Positions 11,850-21,594 of a stretch of DNA of 32,000 nt are shown here, piece by piece; the first letter of the stretch is position 1; the number at the start of each line of letters is the position of its first letter. The translations under genes and the position numbers were made by a program. Origin of the DNA: Candidatus Saccharimonadota bacterium (lineage in GTDB: Archaea > Nanohalarchaeota > Nanosalinia > Nanosalinales > Nanosalinaceae); contig NZ_CP107255.1 in the NCBI RefSeq assembly GCF_029232205.1, positions 1,014,960-1,046,959 of the forward strand, written 5' to 3'. Under the pieces are notes generated by a model. It saw only the letters and a program-made list of their open reading frames with translations. It did not search any database and had not been told where the DNA came from.

Positions 11850-12236
11850 CTATTTTTCTTGGTCTTCTTCGTTGTCTCTTGCTTCTTCGTAAGGGTCCTC
11901 TACTCTGTGTAGGTCTTCCGGCCTGTATGGGAATGAGATTTCCAGTATTTTGGCTACCTGTGTGTCAATGTTCTGGATCTGGTGTTTTTCGTTGGATCTG
12001 ATGACTGTTGCGTTACCTTTCTCCAGTTTCTGGATTCCGCCTTCTTTTCTGATCTGGGCGTTTCCTTCTTCAAGATAGATTATGTCGGATTGGTCTTCGT
12101 GGTAGGAGTAAGAAGTCATTTCGTCGGCATCGATTACAAGTCTTCTGATACCTAGCATTCCTACGCGGTCTCCAACGTCTACCTGGGTGCTTAGAATGTG
12201 TTCTTCGTATCCCCAGGGCTTCTCGATTCTTCCCAT
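11850..12236 (-). CDS. Small cupin-domain protein (type II mannose-6-phosphate isomerase-like cupin)
   Basis: 128 aa. It has the N-terminal EKPWGYE motif and a cupin core (SYSYHEDQSDIIYLEEGNAQI...GNATVIRSNEKHQIQN). It is the last gene of a four-gene minus-strand operon. Confidence 0.6.
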   Translation of the reverse strand: MGRIEKPWGYEEHILSTQVDVGDRVGMLGIRRLVIDADEMTSYSYHEDQSDIIYLEEGNAQIRKEGGIQKLEKGNATVIRSNEKHQIQNIDTQVAKILEISFPYRPEDLHRVEDPYEEARDNEEDQEK

Positions 12237-12261
12237 AAGAAGAAAAAAGGAATAAAATTTC

Positions 12262-13203
12262 TTATAGATGATTCCTGTAGTACTCTACAGTTTTCTCAAG
12301 GCCTTCCTCAAAGGAGTGCTTAGGTTCGTAGCCTAGATCTCTCTTTGCTCGGCTGTAGTCGGCCTTTGTAGTCATGACAGGATTGTCTCTCGGATGTTCG
12401 ATGTGTTCTGGTTCTATCTCTGTGCCGAGGGCCTGGTTCAGTTTCTCAACCAGAGAGTTGAAGTCGATGTCTCTTCCTGTTCCAATATTGTAGTACTCGC
12501 CGTCGGTCTCTTCCTTTCTCTCTGCAGCCAGATAGTTGGCTCTTGCAATGTCCTTGACGTATGTAAAGTCTCTGCTCTGGGTTCCGTCGCCCCATATGAC
12601 AGGTTGTTCTCCGTCCATCATCTTCCAGAGGAACTGGGTGACCACGTTGGCGTACTTTCCTTTTCCTTTTTCGTGAGGGCCGAATACCGAGAAGTATCTG
12701 AGGCCTGTGAAATGCATGTCTGTCTGCTGAGAGTAGACTTTGGCGTAAAGCTCTCTGCTCATTTTTGAGGCCGTGTAGAGATTGGTTGGGTATTCCCCAT
12801 TGTCTTCCTCATGTGGAGGTTCTACGCTTCCGTACATAGACGAGGTTGATGCGTAAACTACCTTCTCCATATTTTCCTCTTCCTTGGCGGCCTCGATTGT
12901 ATTGATGAATCCTTCAATATTTACTCTTGCGCCTTCTGCCGCGTCATCTTTGTGCATCGGGCTTGAAGATCGCGCAGCCTGATGGAATACAGTGTCACAG
13001 CCTTCAATGGCCTCTCTTACAGTTTCCATATCGAGTACTGATCCTTCTACAAACTCTACTTCGTCTTTGATTTCTTCAAGATTTGATTCTTCTCCAAGGT
13101 AGAGAGAGTCAAGCACTACCACTTCAACTCCTTCCTCCACCAGTTTTTCCGCAATGTTGGAGCCGATAAAACCTGCTCCTCCAGTCACTAGTGCTTTTTC
13201 CAT
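12262..13203 (-). CDS. NAD-dependent nucleotide-sugar epimerase/dehydratase (WbpP/TviC-like UDP-sugar 4-epimerase type)
   Basis: 313 aa. It has the TGGAGFIGSN Rossmann motif, the YTASK catalytic Y-x-x-x-K and a LRYFSVFGP segment. Confidence 0.85.
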   Translation of the reverse strand: MEKALVTGGAGFIGSNIAEKLVEEGVEVVVLDSLYLGEESNLEEIKDEVEFVEGSVLDMETVREAIEGCDTVFHQAARSSSPMHKDDAAEGARVNIEGFINTIEAAKEEENMEKVVYASTSSMYGSVEPPHEEDNGEYPTNLYTASKMSRELYAKVYSQQTDMHFTGLRYFSVFGPHEKGKGKYANVVTQFLWKMMDGEQPVIWGDGTQSRDFTYVKDIARANYLAAERKEETDGEYYNIGTGRDIDFNSLVEKLNQALGTEIEPEHIEHPRDNPVMTTKADYSRAKRDLGYEPKHSFEEGLEKTVEYYRNHL

Positions 13204-13208
13204 AGTAT

Positions 13209-13757
13209 CTATTTCTCCACTATATCTCGTTTGATTAAAAACTCTTTTACCGGATCCGTAACCTCCTTCTGCTCTATCTCACTGTAAGATAGCCATTCCA
13301 GATACTCCGCCTCATCGTTGGGCTCAAGCTCCACATCCTGATCCTCCAGTTCAACAAAGTAAAGATGCCATCCATGAATATCAGCACCTCTACGGCATTT
13401 ATCATCTATTTCTCCTTCAAAAACCAGCTCGGCATTTTCTTCATCGAGCTCAAGGCCTGTTTCCTCCCATACCTCTCTCATAGCGGCCTTATCAGGGTCT
13501 TCTCCTTCTTCTAGATGGCCTGCTGGGATGCTGTGTTTGTAAGGGTATTTTCTTCTCTTGAGCAGAAGGTATTCTCCTTCGGCCTTGATTACTGCGCCAA
13601 CGCTTTCATGGATAATCTCTCCATCCTCCTCTCTGTGGACAAGGCCTTTGTTTTTGATTATTCTAGTGTTTTTGTGGCCGTTTTCACAAACGTACTTCTC
13701 TCTTCCTTGTTCGTCAACTACTTCGATTTCCTCAGAGCTACATTCTATGCATTTCAT
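13209..13757 (-). CDS. NUDIX hydrolase with an N-terminal zinc ribbon
   Basis: 182 aa. A complete Nudix box is present: GHLEEGEDPDKAAMREVWEETGL. The N-terminal CIEC...C-x-x-x-H segment is zinc-ribbon-like. Confidence 0.85.
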   Translation of the reverse strand: MKCIECSSEEIEVVDEQGREKYVCENGHKNTRIIKNKGLVHREEDGEIIHESVGAVIKAEGEYLLLKRRKYPYKHSIPAGHLEEGEDPDKAAMREVWEETGLELDEENAELVFEGEIDDKCRRGADIHGWHLYFVELEDQDVELEPNDEAEYLEWLSYSEIEQKEVTDPVKEFLIKRDIVEK

Positions 13758-13767
13758 GTTTACCAGT

Positions 13768-14526
13768 TTAGTCTGAGGCCTTTACAACCTGTTCCTCTGA
13801 TGGTTTTTCCTGGTAGAATGGCATTCGTGTGTCTGATGGCATGCTCTGTATCTCGAAGTCTTCTGTGTCATCCCAAGTGTAGAAAGGAGTTCCATCGAGA
13901 TGGAATTTTGGCACTCTGTCTGTTTCCGGACCGTAGCGTGTGACTATGTGGTCTGGATCTCCTCTTTCCTCTATTACTCTGTGAGGGACGTTTGGCGGCA
14001 CGAATACTGCGTTATCTCTGTCTGCTACAGCATATACCACGCCATCATTGTTCTGAGCTGATTGAAGCGGGTCTTGTTCATAGTCAAAGTCTGGGCCGGC
14101 CATTCCTAGTACTAGTGAGCCATTTCTTGCTCGGTATACTTCCCAGCCTGATAGGTGGAGGTGCCACTGTTCTTTTTCCTCGAAGTCGTAGTTTTGGTTG
14201 TCTTTAAATTCCCATGGAGATCCTATGGAGTGTTTGAGGTAGAATCCTCCATCATCTTTCTGATCTGGACCCATAAGGAACGGCGTATTATAGTCTAGAT
14301 CTTCTGCTTCGTTGAGACGTTGAACCATGTCCTCTGAGAAAGTTATGTATTCTCCAGATATCTGTTCTGCTGGGCCGAAGTACATTTCTCCTTCCGAAAT
14401 ATTTTCTACAGCCCCGCCTCTTAATTCTCCATCCCGGAGTGCGAAGAGGCCTACCTCGCCTGAAAGCGCCTGGTCAACATCTTGCCATTCGTTTTCTGTA
14501 TCAAGCTTTCCTACGTCAAAACTCAT
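13768..14526 (-). CDS. Acidic hypothetical protein with cupin metal-binding motifs
   Basis: 252 aa. WHLHLSGWEVYRARNG fits cupin motif 1 (H-x-H-x4-E-x6-G), and AVFVPPNVPHRV resembles cupin motif 2. No closer family was recognised. Confidence 0.5.
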   Translation of the reverse strand: MSFDVGKLDTENEWQDVDQALSGEVGLFALRDGELRGGAVENISEGEMYFGPAEQISGEYITFSEDMVQRLNEAEDLDYNTPFLMGPDQKDDGGFYLKHSIGSPWEFKDNQNYDFEEKEQWHLHLSGWEVYRARNGSLVLGMAGPDFDYEQDPLQSAQNNDGVVYAVADRDNAVFVPPNVPHRVIEERGDPDHIVTRYGPETDRVPKFHLDGTPFYTWDDTEDFEIQSMPSDTRMPFYQEKPSEEQVVKASD

Positions 14527-14527
14527 T

Positions 14528-14546
14528 CGTAATACAAAGTATTACG
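14528..14546. promoter_or_regulatory. Perfect inverted repeat CGTAATAC-AAA-GTATTACG between a TATA box and the ATG of the cupin-Nudix-epimerase operon
   Basis: Read directly from the sequence. The palindromic TATA-like TTTATAAA lies at 14553-14560 and the operon ATG at 14526. The repeat sits 48 nt downstream of the RHH-fusion gene stop. Confidence 0.45.
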
Positions 14547-14593
14547 TTATTATTTATAAATTCTTGTTCTATAAGAGAACTCTGATTTCAAGC

Positions 14594-15340
14594 CTATCGA
14601 TCGATATCCTTCCACTTCCCACCGTAGATATATCCTGATAGAAGGCCTTCATCCGCAAGGTTCTCAAAGGCCTTTTCCAGAGATTCTGCCTCCAGATACT
14701 CGAATATATTGCTTTCCAGAATGTATGTTCCCGCATTGATCAGCTGTGATGGTTCCTCTCCGGCCTCCGGCTTTTCCTCGAATCCCAGGATTTTTCTTCC
14801 TTTCAGCCTGGCCACTCCGTAATTGGAGGGAGATGTCTCTGTTGTGAGAGCCATTGTAGCATTGGAGTCCTCCTCTCTGTGAACTCTCAGCATGTCTTCG
14901 AGGTCGACATCTGCCACGACGTGGCCGTTTAGAGCGACGAAGGTTTCGTTGACCTTTTTCTCGGCCTTTGACAGTGCTGCGGCCGTACCCTCTGACTGAT
15001 CCTCTATATATTCGAGAGTCATGGTTTCATAGCTTGAGCCAAACTGCTCCTCTATCTCTTCCCTGTTCTGGCCTGCAAGGAGTATTACTCTTGAGATTCC
15101 TTGCGTGGAGAGGTTGTCGAGTATGTGGCCTAGAACCGGTTTTCCCTCGTAAAGATTGAGTGTTTTGTTTTCCGGATCCCCACAGAGAATTACTGCTGTA
15201 TTGAGGCCTTTACCTTTGAAGTATTCCTTTGTAATCTTTTCTACAGTCTGCGACCTATTTATATCGCGGCTTTCGGCCTCTGCATCGATTTTTTCGACTA
15301 AATTTTCATCGAGAGTGAGGGAAATCCTCTTTTTGCCCAT
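14594..15340 (-). CDS. Ribbon-helix-helix (CopG-like) domain fused to a sugar-nucleotidyltransferase-like domain with a degenerate active-site loop
   Basis: The N-terminus KKRISLTLDENLVEKIDAEAESRDINRSQTVEKITKEYF has the RHH pattern. The remainder is colinear with G1P nucleotidyltransferases (GTAAAL, VALNGHVVADVDL, YGVARL, FEEKP, LINAGTYIL). However, the G-G-x-G-T-R-L loop is replaced by LCGDPENKT. The ORF track starts at a GTG at 15355, but the ATG at 15340 is better placed relative to the TATA box. Confidence 0.7.
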   Translation of the reverse strand: MGKKRISLTLDENLVEKIDAEAESRDINRSQTVEKITKEYFKGKGLNTAVILCGDPENKTLNLYEGKPVLGHILDNLSTQGISRVILLAGQNREEIEEQFGSSYETMTLEYIEDQSEGTAAALSKAEKKVNETFVALNGHVVADVDLEDMLRVHREEDSNATMALTTETSPSNYGVARLKGRKILGFEEKPEAGEEPSQLINAGTYILESNIFEYLEAESLEKAFENLADEGLLSGYIYGGKWKDIDR

Positions 15341-15360
15341 GTACAAAGTTTCCACGTTGA

Positions 15361-15368
15361 TATTTTAA
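15361..15368. promoter_or_regulatory. Single TATA-like box TATTTTAA shared by divergent genes
   Basis: It is centred about 27 nt from the ATG at 15392 on the plus strand and about 25 nt from the ATG at 15340 on the minus strand. Confidence 0.4.
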
Positions 15369-15391
15369 TGAATGAGGCCTAACTTTGAGGT

Positions 15392-16294
15392 ATGAAGATT
15401 GGGATTACCGGTGGCGCAGGATTCATAGGATCAACCCTTGCAGAAGAACTAAAGGACGAACACGAAGTTCTTGTGATAGATAACTTTTCTTCAGGCCGTG
15501 AGGAGAACGTGCCGGAAGGAGTAGAGGTTCTCGAGTTTGATATCAAGGATGAAGGCCTTGAAGAGTTTCTGGAGGATGTTGATACTGTTTTTCACTTTGC
15601 CGCCAATCCCAAGGTAAATACGTTCCCTGACGATAGAGAGAAGGATTTTGATGAGAACTTTGTCGGCACCAAGAATGTTTTAGATGCCTGTGTCAATGCA
15701 GATATCGATGATGTTATTTTTGCGTCTTCCTCAGTGGTTTACGGCGAGGAGGCCGAGATTCCGACTCCTGAAGATCACAGGCTTGATCCTATTTCTATGT
15801 ACGGCGCTACAAAGGCCGGTGACGAACACATGGTGCAGGTCTACGGCCAGACATTCGGTATAGATACCACTATCGTCCGACTCGCGAACATTATCGGAGG
15901 GAAGAATCCTAAAGGAGTTATCTACGACTTTGTCCACAAGCTGGATGAGAATCCTGAGGAGTTGACTATTCTCGGGAACGGTAAACAGAGAAAGTCCTAC
16001 ATCTATATTGAGGATACTGTGAACGGTATCCTAAAGGCCTGGGAGTCTGATAAATCAGTTTTCAATATTGGTTCTGAAGATTCTATTGATGTCGATAGTA
16101 TTGCGGAGATTGTCGCTGACGAGATGGGTCTTGATCCAGAGTTTTCGTATACCGGCGGCGATCGCGGCTGGACTGGCGATGTTCCGGAGATGAGGTTGAG
16201 TATTGAGAAGTTGAAGTCTGAGGGCTGGAGGCCTTCGAGAAATTCCGCTGAATCAGTAAGGAAGACTGCTCGAGAGGTAATTGAAAACCTCTAA
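15392..16294 (+). CDS. NAD-dependent nucleotide-sugar epimerase/dehydratase (archaeal GalE-like)
   Basis: 300 aa. It has the TGGAGFIGS motif, the YGATK catalytic motif and the GDRGWTGDV segment common in archaeal GalE-like proteins. Confidence 0.85.
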   Translation: MKIGITGGAGFIGSTLAEELKDEHEVLVIDNFSSGREENVPEGVEVLEFDIKDEGLEEFLEDVDTVFHFAANPKVNTFPDDREKDFDENFVGTKNVLDACVNADIDDVIFASSSVVYGEEAEIPTPEDHRLDPISMYGATKAGDEHMVQVYGQTFGIDTTIVRLANIIGGKNPKGVIYDFVHKLDENPEELTILGNGKQRKSYIYIEDTVNGILKAWESDKSVFNIGSEDSIDVDSIAEIVADEMGLDPEFSYTGGDRGWTGDVPEMRLSIEKLKSEGWRPSRNSAESVRKTAREVIENL

Positions 16295-16980
16295 AGGTCT
16301 TCACTATTTTGCAGTTCTGTCTCAGGCGTTATATCTATCTCTACAAAGTACTTCTGGCCGTTGACCTCAAAGAATCCGTTCTCATGAGGAGGAAAGCTCA
16401 GAGCTCTCAGCCTGTCAATCAGGTCGCCGGCCCGCACCTTCTCATCCAGATCGATCTCAGCAACATCATCCAGTTCATTCCTGTAATGAGTCTGGCCTGT
16501 GGAGAGATCCTGACTGCGGCCTTTTACTCCCTTCTTGATCTCAGGCCAGGCCTCTTTGAACAGCAGAACTGATTCGGACTTCAATCGCTCATAAAGATCT
16601 TTTGCAGTATCCTCTGGTTTGACAGGAACCTCCATCTGGTCGATGATCGGACCTTCATCTATTCCTTCCGCCATGTAGTGTATTGATACTCCTGCAGGGG
16701 TTCCATCAAGTAGAGGCCACATATAAGGATATGAGCCACGGTTGTAAGGCAGGAGCGATGGATGTACGTTGACTACTCCTTTCTCCGGTATCTCGATTAT
16801 CTCTTCCGGCACCTTGTGCTCGAATCCTGCAGAAATAACGATTTCGGGTTCAAGCTCTTTGATAAGGCCTAGCTGATCTTTTTCTGTAAGTAAGGCCTTT
16901 ACTTCTACATCTTCTTGCTGGTTCAGCCAGTTGTAGATCTGTTCTCCAGCATCGTTGATTCCCAGAAATACTGCTTCCAT
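16291..16980 (-). CDS. Formyltransferase (Fmt/ArnA N-terminal-domain-like), probably acting on a nucleotide-linked amino sugar
   Basis: 229 aa. NVHPSLLPYNRG supplies the Asn and His, and GIDEGPII supplies the Asp of the formyltransferase catalytic triad. The gene sits in a glycosylation island. Confidence 0.75.
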   Translation of the reverse strand: MEAVFLGINDAGEQIYNWLNQQEDVEVKALLTEKDQLGLIKELEPEIVISAGFEHKVPEEIIEIPEKGVVNVHPSLLPYNRGSYPYMWPLLDGTPAGVSIHYMAEGIDEGPIIDQMEVPVKPEDTAKDLYERLKSESVLLFKEAWPEIKKGVKGRSQDLSTGQTHYRNELDDVAEIDLDEKVRAGDLIDRLRALSFPPHENGFFEVNGQKYFVEIDITPETELQNSEDL

Positions 16981-16985
16981 AATTT

Positions 16986-17297
16986 TTACCTGTTGTCGCC
17001 ACTTCCGTGTAGTTTGTCGCGTTCTTTCCTGTCCAGCAGCTTATCTAGATTTCTATCAGCGATATCGGAGAGGTCATAACCTAATTCATCTGCAAGACGC
17101 GTTAAATACCAGAGGACATCTCCAAGCTCATCTCTGGTTTCCTCTCCAAGCTCTTTGTCATCTCTGATCGATTTCTTTACTTTTTCAGCTACTTCGCCGG
17201 CCTCACCGTTAAGGCCTAATGCCAGATAGCTTATTTTCTGATCTTCAGGGTAGATAGCAGTCTTCTCCGTACCTTCCTGGTAGGTGTCAAACTCCAT
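16986..17297 (-). CDS. mazG: Small single-domain MazG-like nucleotide pyrophosphohydrolase
   Basis: 103 aa. LGLNGEAGEVAEKVKK...ELGDVLWYLTRLADELGYDL contains the E-x-x-E and E-x-x-D MazG motifs. Confidence 0.8.
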   Translation of the reverse strand: MEFDTYQEGTEKTAIYPEDQKISYLALGLNGEAGEVAEKVKKSIRDDKELGEETRDELGDVLWYLTRLADELGYDLSDIADRNLDKLLDRKERDKLHGSGDNR

Positions 17298-17313
17298 ACA
17301 GAAAATTTTCTGT
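17298..17313. promoter_or_regulatory. Perfect 16-bp palindrome ACAGAAAATTTTCTGT abutting the mazG ATG
   Basis: Read directly from the sequence. It lies between a TATA-like TAAATAT (minus strand, 17319-17325) and the mazG start (17297), and 29 nt downstream of the vapC stop. Confidence 0.4.
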
Positions 17314-17342
17314 CTTAGATATTTATCTTGCAGGCTTAGAGT

Positions 17343-17705
17343 TTACTCCTCGAGTTTTCTACGTTCTGTATATTTGTCGTATTCTTTATCGCTGGAGACG
17401 ATCTTCTCTCCATCGGATTTTACAAGGTGAAGAGCATCGAAAGGCGTCATTTCTTCCTGCTGTACGTAGGCTGCAGCAGACTCAATGTCTTTACTGTCTC
17501 CTCTAACTTCCAGAAGTTCAATTGTCTCGGATACAGTCTTCAGGACATTTCTATCTTCTCTATAAGCCACAAGCATCAGTTCAAGCAGAGTATATTCTGA
17601 TGTCCACAGATCTTTCCTGTTCTCCCTGTATATCTGCTCTGCTTTATCCGAAAGCCAGTCATCTTCCTTTAGAAGTGCGAGAATAAAATCTGTTTCAACA
17701 TACAT
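17343..17705 (-). CDS. vapC: PIN-domain ribonuclease toxin (VapC-like)
   Basis: 120 aa. Acidic residues are in the PIN pattern (VETDFILALL, TSEYTLLEL, PFDALHLV, SSDKEYD). The start overlaps the stop of the upstream antitoxin gene by 1 nt. Confidence 0.72.
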   Translation of the reverse strand: MYVETDFILALLKEDDWLSDKAEQIYRENRKDLWTSEYTLLELMLVAYREDRNVLKTVSETIELLEVRGDSKDIESAAAYVQQEEMTPFDALHLVKSDGEKIVSSDKEYDKYTERRKLEE

Positions 17706-19271: not shown

Positions 19272-20822
19272 ATGAGCGATGCCGATCAAAAAGCCCTGAA
19301 CGCACTGGCCAAAGGAGCCGGCGTAACAGCTATCGGCATGATGGTATCAAAGGCCTTGACCTATCTCTACCGGGTTTCAATCGCACGATATGTAGGGCCT
19401 GACGCATACGGTCAGCTATCCCTTGCACTGATGGTTACAGGAATAGTAAGTACCGTAGCATACCTGGCGGTGGGTAACGGCCTGAAGAAATTCATACCAG
19501 AGTTCAGAACCCGAGACGATATGGCCAGCATCAAGGGAATAGTGCTGAATGCTCTAGAACTTACAGTTCCTCTCTCACTTGTTCTGTTTGGCCTTGTGTT
19601 TTTCGGCGCAGAGTTCATAGCAACCACTTTCTTCGATAATACAGCAATAATACCTCTGATCAAGATCCTTTCATTCACTATTCCTATTGGAACTCTTGTC
19701 AGCATATTCTTCGATACCACGCTCGGATTCAACAAAATAATATACAAGACAGGAACCGTCAGAATACTGCAGAACGTTGTACAGCTCGGAGTAACCCTGG
19801 CCCTTCTATTCCTAGGATTCAACGTAGTGAGTGCAGCTTGGGGATGGTTGGCAGGAACAACACTCTCCGCCATACTCGGATTCTACTTCATGGAGAAGAA
19901 AGTCGGGCCAATACTCTTCTCCGATGTAAAGGCCAAACATCATAGGAAAAAGCTACTCCATTTTTCAGCCCCTTTGCTTCTATCAGGAATAATAGGAACT
20001 CTGCTAGGATGGGCTGATACAGGAATGCTGGGATACTACATGACAGACTACGAAGTAGGCCTGTACAATGCAGCGCTACCAACAGCAATGCTGATACTAC
20101 TTCCTCACAAGGCCATTGGTAGTTTGGCAATCACATCCTTCTCCGAACTAAAGGAAAGAGATGCAGAAAGTATAGAGGCCTCAATGCAGACTGCAACCCG
20201 ATGGGTATTCTCACTAGTACTTCCAACATTCCTTATACTGCTTCTTTTCTCAGAAACCATCCTGCAAATCCTCTGGGGTGGCCAGTACACAGAAGCATCC
20301 TTCGCGCTCTCAATCCTAGCCTGTGGATACCTAATTAACGCAACTGTTGGCAGAGTCGGTAGCTTCCTCAACTCCACAGGACATACAAGATACATACTCT
20401 ACAACAACATCGCTGCATTAACGCTCAACCTCATCCTAAACATCCTACTGATACCTATCTACGGAATAATAGGCGCAGCAATCGCCACAGCAACATCCAC
20501 AATCCTGACGAATGTATTGATGTTCGCAGAGGTCTGGAGAAAAGAAGACGTAGTCAGCATACCATTCACACCAGCACTCAAAATAACGATTACAGGCCTA
20601 CTTGCCTTGTTGCCTGTTATAGGTCTTGACAGAGTTTTATTCAAAAATACGCCTTACTGGTTCCTGGTTCCTGCTGGTTTGATTTATGGCCTAACATATA
20701 TGGCACTATACCTGGCGATAGTAGGTCTAAGAGAGGAAGAAAGAGAAGTACTAAAGAGAGTAGGAGAGTTAATAGGGAGAGAAAAGGAAATAGAGAAAAT
20801 TCTAGGGCTAATTATCTCTTAG
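19272..20822 (+). CDS. Oligosaccharide/polysaccharide flippase (Wzx/RfbX-type, MOP superfamily)
   Basis: 516 aa with about 14 hydrophobic segments. The N-terminus (GAGVTAIGMMVSKALTYLYRVSIARYVGPDAYG) is typical of polysaccharide biosynthesis proteins. Confidence 0.8.
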   Translation: MSDADQKALNALAKGAGVTAIGMMVSKALTYLYRVSIARYVGPDAYGQLSLALMVTGIVSTVAYLAVGNGLKKFIPEFRTRDDMASIKGIVLNALELTVPLSLVLFGLVFFGAEFIATTFFDNTAIIPLIKILSFTIPIGTLVSIFFDTTLGFNKIIYKTGTVRILQNVVQLGVTLALLFLGFNVVSAAWGWLAGTTLSAILGFYFMEKKVGPILFSDVKAKHHRKKLLHFSAPLLLSGIIGTLLGWADTGMLGYYMTDYEVGLYNAALPTAMLILLPHKAIGSLAITSFSELKERDAESIEASMQTATRWVFSLVLPTFLILLLFSETILQILWGGQYTEASFALSILACGYLINATVGRVGSFLNSTGHTRYILYNNIAALTLNLILNILLIPIYGIIGAAIATATSTILTNVLMFAEVWRKEDVVSIPFTPALKITITGLLALLPVIGLDRVLFKNTPYWFLVPAGLIYGLTYMALYLAIVGLREEEREVLKRVGELIGREKEIEKILGLIIS

Positions 20823-21539
20823 ATCGAACTCTCTGTTGGCCTTTCTCAATCTCTCCGGAGTGCCAACATCTATACGAGTTCCGATAATATCTCTGTAGCC
20901 AACATTATCATTTCTCTGTCGGAGAATATCAATGGCATCGGTTAGCTGATATTCTCCTCCTTTACCCTTCTCGACGTCTTCTATGGCATTGAAGATCTCT
21001 GGCTCAAAAACATACATACCAGAGATAGCGATATCGGATGGCGCCTCATCTTCAGAAGGCTTCTCAACCATTCCCTTCACTCTGTTGTCTTCATCAACAT
21101 CCAAGACGCCGTAAGAAGTTACATCATCAGGCCTGAAAGTTCCGATTGTAGTATCAAACTCTTTATTGCTGTGGAATTCAACCAGATCTTTCAAAGCTTT
21201 TTTATCATCGACATAATTATCGCCAAGCACAACTGCAAAAGATTCTTCACCTACAACATGTTCTCCTGCTTTTACAGCTCCGGCAAGACCATTCCTATCA
21301 TCTTGAACAACATAGGTTAGCTGAACTCCATAATCATCTCCGGAACCAAGGTAGTCTAGAATAGCATGCTGTTTCCATCCAACAACGATCACAATATCGG
21401 TGATACCTGCGTGTTTCATATCTTCAATGCAGTGTTCAATTACTGCTTTCTCACCTACAGGAAGAAGTTCCTTAGGGTACGCATTTGTAAACGGTTCCAT
21501 TCTTGTGCCTTTACCGGCAGCCGGAATCAAGCCTTTCAT
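20808..21539 (-). CDS. Sugar-1-phosphate nucleotidyltransferase (GalU/AglF-like UTP-glucose-1-phosphate uridylyltransferase type)
   Basis: MKGLIPAAGKGTRMEPFTNAYPKELLPVG shows an intact G-x-G-T-R loop and a K-E-L-L-P segment. The ORF track starts at 21575, but the ATG at 21539 fits the family N-terminus and the TATA spacing. Confidence 0.85.
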   Translation of the reverse strand: MKGLIPAAGKGTRMEPFTNAYPKELLPVGEKAVIEHCIEDMKHAGITDIVIVVGWKQHAILDYLGSGDDYGVQLTYVVQDDRNGLAGAVKAGEHVVGEESFAVVLGDNYVDDKKALKDLVEFHSNKEFDTTIGTFRPDDVTSYGVLDVDEDNRVKGMVEKPSEDEAPSDIAISGMYVFEPEIFNAIEDVEKGKGGEYQLTDAIDILRQRNDNVGYRDIIGTRIDVGTPERLRKANREFDLRDN

Positions 21540-21560
21540 AACACAGAATAATGGCTCTTG

Positions 21561-21570
21561 ATATTTTTTA
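21561..21570. promoter_or_regulatory. Single AT-rich TATA-like element ATATTTTTTA shared by a divergent gene pair
   Basis: It is centred about 29 nt from the ATG at 21595 on the plus strand and about 27 nt from the ATG at 21539 on the minus strand. Confidence 0.4.
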
Positions 21571-21594
21571 TGCATACGCCTCTAAACTATAGAT

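Follow-up and report, generated by a model that had tools for sequence, protein, structure and literature searches.

Several described systems join a DNA-binding domain to a sensor or to an enzyme, or retain an enzyme fold after its catalytic elements are lost. NikR (1q5v/2hzv) combines an N-terminal ribbon-helix-helix (RHH) domain with a C-terminal ligand-binding oligomerisation domain in one chain, and in E. coli it reads the site GTATGA-N16-TCATAC, of which TCATAC is the half-site (PMC7055735). In the trigger enzymes, such as PutA (RHH joined to proline catabolic enzymes), BirA, NadR and RbkR, a DNA-binding domain is fused to an enzyme of the pathway that is controlled, the archaeal RbkR being a bifunctional enzyme-regulator (PMC5397151). 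In GMPPA (7d72-7d74), and also in GalF, a disabled nucleotidyltransferase fold is kept as a sensor of sugar nucleotides. Here we describe a gene for an RHH-nucleotidyltransferase fusion protein in a stretch of 32,000 nucleotides (the window; contig NZ_CP107255.1, positions 1,014,960 to 1,046,959) from the genome of a member of the Nanohaloarchaeota, deposited as Candidatus Saccharimonadota bacterium. A sequence-only reading of the window had proposed the gene as a sugar-sensing regulator of the surrounding agl island. The protein is probably a one-component regulator, with a NikR/CopG-type RHH domain at its N-terminus and a sugar-1-phosphate nucleotidyltransferase fold at its C-terminus. We propose, at a probability of roughly 0.65, that this regulator uses a dead-enzyme sensor to control genes of gluconeogenesis and sugar-nucleotide synthesis through a shared operator, and that it descends from an active RHH-ManC-like enzyme.

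Both domains are recognised by Pfam, and the strings quoted for them by the sequence-only reading (KKRISLTLDENLVEKID... and LCGDPENKTLNLYEGKP) are present in the translation. Residues 5-31 match RHH_1 (PF01402; 23.8 bits against a cut-off of 20.5) and residues 59-245 match NTP_transferase (PF00483; E 3.4e-24, profile positions 23-228 of 245). The presumed DNA-reading strand of the RHH domain, K3-K4-R5-I6-S7-L8-T9-L10, alternates polar R5, S7 and T9 with hydrophobic I6, L8 and L10, and a turn at N28-R29-S30 starts the second helix; R5, S7, T9, N28, R29 and S30 are invariant in 23 orthologs, and invariant or nearly so in 20 orthologs at 60-91% identity. A profile built on residues 1-46 of the 23 orthologs matches the solved proteins Rv0298 antitoxin (1.5e-8), NikR (1.2e-4) and CopG (3.3e-4). 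The AlphaFold2 (AF2) model of the single chain, based on an alignment of 116 sequences, has a predicted local distance difference test score (pLDDT) of 94 and a predicted template modelling score of 0.84. It begins with an extended segment (residues 1-11) and two helices (residues 12-25 and 29-43), with pLDDT values of 85-96 over residues 1-30, and continues into a Rossmann-like domain; an N-terminal RHH fold in structure prediction, on which the sequence-only reading had staked its claim beforehand, is therefore what the model returns. The strand itself is not scored as beta in this monomer model, as expected. Foldseek placed the model closest to GMPPB of the GMPPA/GMPPB complex, plant VTC1 and RmlA (7d74, 7x8k, 3hl3; probability 1.0, TM-score up to 0.74), and sequence searches of the PDB led to the same three proteins. 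The closest homologs carry the names Nanohaloarchaea, Nanohalobium, Nanosalina and Nanohalococcus, and relatives are annotated as nucleotidyltransferases by NCBI and JGI, under the database label "sugar phosphate nucleotidyltransferase". A toxin-antitoxin interpretation, raised by the RHH antitoxin matches in Pfam, was rejected for want of a toxin partner, and because the C-terminal domain spans about 200 residues and the synteny with sugar metabolism is conserved. In one genome (G049, C12:36917-37653) the gene is present as two overlapping frames, for residues 1-110 and 104-246, reflecting a frameshift or else faulty assembly.

Catalysis in RmlA, GlmU and GMPPB requires both the Gly-rich loop and the metal-binding Asp. 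From the canonical GGxGTRLxPxT...PK segment of the fusion protein about 10 residues are deleted, CGDPENK standing in place of the loop; the Pfam match starts only at profile position 23, so that the first 22 positions, in which the Gly-rich loop lies, are missing. Among the 20 orthologs at 60-91% identity the remnant is always a short C-G-(D/G)-x-x-x-(K/R). The loss of the loop had been claimed from the sequence alone, and alignment with intact paralogs and with fused relatives that have an intact loop bears it out, with the loop deleted and the motifs on the sugar side retained. The same claim, sound as far as it went, had overlooked a second lesion at the metal site: LNSDV of GMPPB aligns to LNGHV of the fusion protein (N138-G139-H140), so that an invariant His takes the place of the Asp. 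NGH is invariant in 20 aligned nanohaloarchaeal orthologs, and most other fused relatives retain the Asp. Within the family, the second metal-binding Asp (D245) varies. The sugar-side motifs G118-T-A, Y174-G-V, E189-K190-P191 and N202-A-G, together with W243, are invariant or nearly so, and a Lys or Arg usually persists where the lysine of the canonical PK would be. The nearest NCBIfam models of the C-terminal part are the archaeal GlmU N-domain, AglF and mannose-1-phosphate guanylyltransferase, all scoring far under cut-off, and the equivalog cut-offs are not reached (Arch_glmU, 99 against 292 bits; AglF, 87 against 400 bits). Taken together, the alignments show a C-terminal fold that has given up the Gly-rich nucleotide loop and the metal Asp, that keeps the pocket motifs on the sugar side, and that is, judged from its conservation, under strong purifying selection across the Nanohaloarchaeota.

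These observations bear on two alternatives to a regulatory role. The first, that the protein remains a working sugar-1-phosphate nucleotidyltransferase whose active site is unusual, and is perhaps bifunctional as are its relatives in the Woesearchaeota, would suit the intact fold and sugar-side motifs, the Lys or Arg usually retained at the PK position and the annotation of its relatives, but we consider it very improbable, given that the whole GxGTRLxPxT is deleted, that His replaces the metal Asp throughout the aligned nanohaloarchaeal orthologs of the closest family, that D245 varies and that every NCBIfam equivalog score falls far under its cut-off. The second is that the fusion protein serves as a non-catalytic subunit which pairs with an active nucleotidyltransferase paralog as an allosteric sensor of product, as in GMPPA/GMPPB and GalF/GalU, the RHH domain acting only in dimerisation. 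Partners would be at hand: the intact paralog that the sequence-only reading had noted in the same island is real, with its AAGKGTRMEPFT loop and a full-length match, and the source genome holds four further intact NTP_transferase genes besides the fusion gene, where one had been reported; the best structure and sequence matches, moreover, are GMPPB and GMPPA of the GMPPA/GMPPB complex. In the Nanohaloarchaeota, however, no active paralog was found as a conserved neighbour of the fusion gene, and R5, S7 and T9 on the DNA-reading strand are invariant together with the N-R-S turn, which dimerisation alone would not need. With the operator evidence described below, this makes the subunit explanation improbable, if less so than retained activity.

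The regulatory reading also draws on the distribution of the fusion. Full-length copies are present in at least 51 of the 70 genomes of the phylum, in three families at 39-100% identity. When 1.8 billion representatives were searched exhaustively, some 100 of the top 150 matches aligned from residue 1-3, that is, carry the RHH domain, and distant fused members were found in the Micrarchaeota, Aenigmarchaeota and Woesearchaeota. One RHH peptide pattern, used to scan species genomes, yielded 255 loci that encode a relative, and the best 80 of these, picked by similarity to a query with an intact loop, were examined; they are mostly from Woesearchaeota/Nanoarchaeia, and the state of the loop was classified in 74. 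Several loci of this type (L038, L041, L044, L075 and others) are labelled "uncultured Methanosarcinales" or "Aminicenantes bacterium" and are probably mis-binned or mislabelled DPANN. The fused gene is followed by phosphoglucomutase/phosphomannomutase in 35 of the 74 loci, or by a mannose-6-phosphate isomerase cupin, and this gene neighbourhood is the ManA/ManB/ManC pathway to GDP-mannose. The minus-strand run of genes in the window likewise includes a GDP-mannose-dehydratase-like epimerase and a cupin of this kind. An intact loop of the AGGKGTRLRPITYEIPK type is found in 64 of the 74 classified Woesearchaeota copies, a sample biased to intact copies by the way in which it was picked. The idea that the fusion architecture by itself marks a dead enzyme consequently has to be given up, and the likely history is one of a bifunctional enzyme-regulator in which catalysis was lost later. 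An alignment of 116 fused proteins comprises 9 with a textbook loop, 36 in which it is full-length but degenerate and 71 in which it carries a deletion. A quickly built maximum-likelihood tree shows every member of the nanohaloarchaeal clade (support 99) with the loop deleted, and as the sister of this clade an aenigmarchaeal group with full-length degenerate loops; elsewhere on the tree the deleted state requires at least 7 changes, even when only strongly supported branches are counted, and one subclade at 47-59% identity mixes intact and deleted loops. Read from these sequences, loss of the loop is recurrent in DPANN and ancestral in the Nanohaloarchaeota, and the RHH fusion is DPANN-wide and older than the loss of catalysis.

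A candidate operator lies beside the gene, in the spacer 14527-14593. This was one of two spacers that the sequence-only reading had singled out as regulated; the other, 15341-15391, has only a TATA box that is shared by the genes on both sides. The candidate operator is positioned 7 nt past a TATA-like box and 2 nt ahead of the ATG at 14526, and consists of two palindromic heptads whose period is 10 bp. As only the central base sets GTAATAC apart from GTATTAC, the two are one palindromic heptad, GTAWTAC, with which the distinction between direct and inverted repeats falls away. Heptads 10 bp apart after a TATA box are seen in several loci when the regions downstream of orthologs are aligned. 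The source genome (1,046,959 bp) contains 95 single GTAWTAC heptads, from which 0.009 pairs would be expected per spacing; it has 4 perfect GTAWTAC-N3-GTAWTAC sites and one with a single mismatch, and no GTAWTAC pairs at N2 or N4 spacing anywhere in the genome. Each of the five sites follows a TATA-like box by a few nt and either precedes a start codon by 2-11 nt or overlaps it. Across the phylum 54 of the 70 genomes have 1-4 perfect sites each, while a reversed control pattern gave 0 in all 70. A different shared element, the word ACAAAGT common to both spacers, was discarded as uninformative (11 matches against 4.6 expected, mostly intragenic).

The genes behind these sites form a coherent set. 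The 32 open reading frames (ORFs) found right behind sites in the phylum include 9 for phosphoglycerate kinase (PGK), 4 for class-V fructose-1,6-bisphosphatase (FBPase), 4 for glyceraldehyde-3-phosphate dehydrogenase (GAPDH), 2 for glutamate dehydrogenase and 2 for NUDIX proteins, with single cases of a pyruvate, phosphate dikinase (PPDK)/phosphoenolpyruvate (PEP)-utilising enzyme, phosphoenolpyruvate carboxykinase (PEPCK), a DeoC-type aldolase, NTP_transferase and GH15. In the window, the probable target operon encodes a 252-aa protein, a NUDIX hydrolase, an NAD-dependent epimerase/dehydratase (GDP-mannose-dehydratase-like) and a cupin with a mannose-6-phosphate isomerase match. The first of these genes (13768-14526, minus strand) has no Pfam match; a homolog of its 252-aa product at 34% identity comes after the operator in another locus (L012). 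The NUDIX hydrolase (13209-13757, minus strand) has an N-terminal CxxC...CxxGH segment that resembles a zinc ribbon. In the very small RNA-seq runs of the source study a single contig of 193 nt, 13756-13948, falls in the region. With respect to the earlier proposal of a regulator for the agl island, the setting is indeed an island of AglB/STT3, glycosyltransferase and sugar-nucleotide genes, according to the Pfam matches of the neighbours, and the regulatory role is upheld by the operator next to the gene and by the paired heptads that distant fused relatives carry in their promoters; the predicted regulon, on the other hand, is not the agl island but a set of gluconeogenic genes with a few sugar-nucleotide genes, scattered over the genome.

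We consider it likely that the fusion protein is the reader of GTAWTAC-N3-GTAWTAC. Of 30 orthologous loci, each about 3.7 kb long, 25 carry a site with no more than one mismatch downstream of the fusion gene, compared with about 0.01 sites expected per locus; the site stands either directly after the gene or just past a small convergent membrane-protein gene. A co-directional ORF always follows this site, and its identity varies (HAD-like in 5 cases, epimerase in 2, cupin in 1 and several unknown). A related arrangement is found in the Woesearchaeota, in which TCATAY-N4-TCATAY occurs at most 160 nt upstream of the fused gene in 41 of 77 loci, and in 59 of 77 with a looser pattern, against 5 matches in the other 756 kb, giving an enrichment of about 490-fold at the promoters of the fused genes. 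The spacing is strict, with 41 loci at N4 (10-bp period) and at most one locus at any other spacing; the pairs stand just ahead of the TATA box, and some arrays mix ATCATAC with GTAWTAC. The corresponding DNA-reading strands are RVTIT in NikR, RVTLT in the Woesearchaeota fusions and RVSLT in the nanohaloarchaeal fusions. The GTAWTAC heptad has an internal two-fold axis, matching the symmetry that an RHH dimer would demand of its site, and the conserved palindromic heptad pairs lend indirect support to dimerisation and DNA binding by the RHH domain. Among the divergent neighbours of Woesearchaeota fused genes (n=16), half are gluconeogenic, namely GlpX FBPase (4), class-I FBPase (2), aldolase (1) and GAPDH (1); three unrelated FBPase families are therefore tied to the regulator or to the motif in different lineages.

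From these elements a mechanism can be proposed. Two RHH dimers, joined by the oligomeric enzyme-like domain in a tetramer, would each take one palindromic heptad on the same face of the DNA. As the operator lies between the TATA box and the start codon, binding would block initiation on leaderless promoters, that is, repress. The predicted targets are PGK, the DeoC-type aldolase, the NUDIX gene, the intact nucleotidyltransferase gene and the neighbouring operon of unknown, NUDIX, epimerase and cupin genes, and in relatives also FBPase, GAPDH, PEPCK, PPDK and glutamate dehydrogenase. More speculatively, the dead pocket might bind a nucleoside diphosphate-hexose or a hexose-1-phosphate as co-repressor, for which GDP-mannose or mannose-1-phosphate would be the best guess from the ancestry and the similarity to GMPPB/GMPPA; a full pool of sugar nucleotides would then shut the anabolic route from PEP to activated sugars, a form of end-product control. 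The ancestor would have been a DPANN-wide, catalytically intact RHH-ManC-like enzyme with heptad pairs in its own promoter, of which only the regulatory function was kept. A wider formulation is a DPANN-wide class of transcription factors, in which an enzyme-autoregulator of the GDP-mannose pathway was repeatedly turned into a pure sensor and came, in the Nanohaloarchaeota, to act as master repressor of both gluconeogenesis and the supply of sugar nucleotides through a 17-bp operator found across the phylum, sensing the pool of activated sugars with its dead active site; this we offer tentatively, at slightly less than even odds.

A number of points weigh against the proposed regulator. Its link to the motif is by association, both its ligand and the direction of the ligand's effect are guessed, and the Woesearchaeota sample behind its ancestry leans, as noted, to intact copies. 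The promoter of the nanohaloarchaeal fusion gene itself is without a site, except for an imperfect one in a single locus (L017). In one 99%-complete, single-contig genome (G047) a clean deletion between the membrane-protein and formyltransferase genes has removed the fusion gene, and the genome retains GTATTAC-TTC-GTAATAT before PGK and GTAATAC-ATC-GTAATAT before the aldolase, with five one-mismatch sites in total, no fewer than its sisters. In a second genome (G031, a 93%-complete draft of 40 contigs) no fusion gene was found and 3 perfect sites are present. Given sites without the gene in both, another, universal factor could read the site. According to this alternative, a different factor of central carbon metabolism binds GTAWTAC-N3-GTAWTAC and the fusion gene merely adjoins one member of the regulon (being a target itself in the Woesearchaeota), binding other DNA or acting in some other way; the adjacency of gene and site can be inherited synteny. 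We nevertheless regard this as unlikely. Internally palindromic heptads fit RHH dimers and not single helix-turn-helix heads, and the RVTLT strand with the TCATAC half-site repeats the pairing seen in NikR. The enrichment at the promoter of the fused gene itself, in a distant lineage, and an adjacency that persists although the next gene changes from HAD to epimerase, cupin or unknown, likewise speak against it. In the genome with the clean deletion, the site that normally adjoins the fusion gene was lost along with it, and the second genome is only a fragmented draft. A third apparent case of absence (G046) was set aside, the "relic" being cut by a contig end and not a loss. A 131-aa RHH protein in G047 was considered as a substitute reader and rejected, since it is an ordinary NikR (RHH plus metal-binding domain; L161 1492-1878) divergent from a ZIP transporter gene; in the source genome a search with the RHH profile found no ordinary NikR-type gene.

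The features of the locus and of the predicted regulon are collected in Table 1. On the other side of the fusion gene, the 51-nt spacer 15341-15391 is without a heptad pair. Its single central A/T box stands at promoter distance from the start codons on both sides. The epimerase ortholog is divergent in 17 of 30 loci, behind a spacer of 51-56 nt with a TTTAAAA/ATTAAAA box 23-29 nt ahead of the ATG, which implies a single bidirectional TATA box with predicted leaderless transcripts in both directions. A 7-bp inverted repeat in this spacer, CAAAGTT-N30-AACTTTG, is broken in a 91%-identical ortholog (L007) and was taken as chance. At position 15485, within the epimerase gene, one base is missing from a minority of DNA contigs of the probable source run (depth 4.5 of 42), likely a sequencing or assembly variant. 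The formyltransferase gene at 16291-16980 (minus strand), often syntenic with the fusion gene, encodes Formyl_trans_N and the N_formyltrans_C dimerisation domain of sugar N-formyltransferases and hints that the glycan pathway includes an amino sugar with an N-formyl group. A single-domain MazG gene (16986-17705, minus strand) comes after a gene for a PIN-domain (VapC-like) protein on the same strand. In many genomes (L008-L035) the gene of the small membrane protein (139-161 aa, motif ESRAYGFTIAFWGSG) lies about 50-500 nt downstream of the fusion gene and convergent to it; this gene may be co-regulated, as the heptad pair lies in its promoter region.

Table 1. Features of the fusion-gene locus and predicted regulon; positions are those of the window, except for the four source-genome sites, which are given by genome position.
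Feature	Position	Strand	Basis or target
RHH/pseudo-nucleotidyltransferase fusion gene, 248 aa	14594..15340	-	ATG at 15340, stop 14594-14596; ORF and Pfam
RHH DNA-binding domain, residues 1-45	15206..15340	-	Pfam, ortholog conservation, profile matches, AF2
Nucleotidyltransferase-fold domain, residues 47-248	14597..15202	-	Pfam, NCBIfam, PDB, AF2/Foldseek
Catalytic-loop remnant CGDPENKTLNLYEGKP, residues 53-68	15137..15184	-	Alignments with intact paralogs and intact fused relatives
His140 codon, in place of the metal-binding Asp of LN(G/S)D	14921..14923	-	GMPPB alignment, sequence read
Candidate operator GTAATAC-AAA-GTATTAC	14529..14545	.	Perfect inverted repeat; genome and phylum enrichment
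TATA-like box TTTATAAA of the downstream operon	14553..14560	-	Sequence read
Probable target operon beside the fusion gene	11850..14526	-	ORFs and Pfam; operator directly upstream
Central A/T box TATTTTAA common to the fusion gene and the divergent epimerase gene	15361..15368	.	51-nt spacer read
Divergent NAD-dependent epimerase/dehydratase	15392..16294	+	Pfam; synteny in 17/30 loci
Intact NTP_transferase paralog	20808..21575	-	AAGKGTRMEPFT...PKELLP; full-length Pfam match, E 4.5e-46
Source-genome site	142135		Target: PGK
Source-genome site	112461		Target: DeoC-type aldolase
Source-genome site	554444		Target: NUDIX-size gene
Source-genome site	668441		Target: intact nucleotidyltransferase gene

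DPANN archaea combine very small genomes and few recognisable regulators with a carbon economy that depends on a host, and their gene regulation is almost uncharted. The present analysis offers a concrete candidate pairing of protein and operator for this group, between a mislabelled "sugar phosphate nucleotidyltransferase" and a phylum-conserved 17-bp site before PGK, FBPase, GAPDH and sugar-nucleotide genes. It also has a consequence for annotation, in that such genes should not be counted as a capacity for nucleotide-sugar synthesis in metabolic reconstructions of Nanohaloarchaeota. The probable succession from active enzyme-regulators in the Woesearchaeota, through decayed loops, to a regulator-only pseudoenzyme in the Nanohaloarchaeota would form a natural series useful for the study of how enzymes evolve into sensors.

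In the literature searched (RHH with nucleotidyltransferase, guanylyltransferase, DPANN or Nanohaloarchaea) we found no description of this RHH-nucleotidyltransferase fusion, nor of the enzyme family in such a role, and each of the known systems resembles it in part. The omega repressor and the CopG/Arc RHH repressors bind short repeated sub-sites cooperatively as dimers, the sub-sites of omega being heptads, and are small proteins without a sensor domain. Regulators of the TrmB family (Tgr/TrmBL1 with the Thermococcales glycolytic motif, and haloarchaeal TrmB) act through a short palindromic element at the gluconeogenic genes PGK, GAPDH and FBPase, and there too binding downstream of the TATA box would repress; they differ in being winged-helix proteins with another sugar-binding fold and other motifs, and have no homology to the fusion protein. 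GMPPA is the closest precedent for the dead sensor, but it acts on GMPPB by protein contact and has no DNA-binding domain, whereas the output here is presumably DNA binding. The intact-loop relatives in the Woesearchaeota, with heptads in their own promoters, are similar to the trigger enzymes; the nanohaloarchaeal protein, without the catalytic elements, would be a regulator-only end point of that type. By analogy of architecture, NikR is the closest working model. The TCATAC half-site of NikR equals the core of the heptad upstream of the Woesearchaeota fused genes, and two sub-sites would take two RHH dimers. The C-terminal domain of NikR, however, is an ACT-like metal-binding domain with His/Cys ligands for Ni(II), while here it is a nucleotidyltransferase fold with a sugar derivative as presumed ligand; because of this fold the fusion protein is an analogue of NikR and not a member of its family. 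The sub-sites of NikR are separated by 16 bp; those described here are 10 bp apart, with the nanohaloarchaeal heptad GTAWTAC and a regulon of carbon metabolism. One-component RHH regulators and sensors derived from enzymes are thus known, and what is new is the DPANN-wide fusion, the recurrent loss of its loop, the phylum-wide candidate operator and its predicted gluconeogenic targets.

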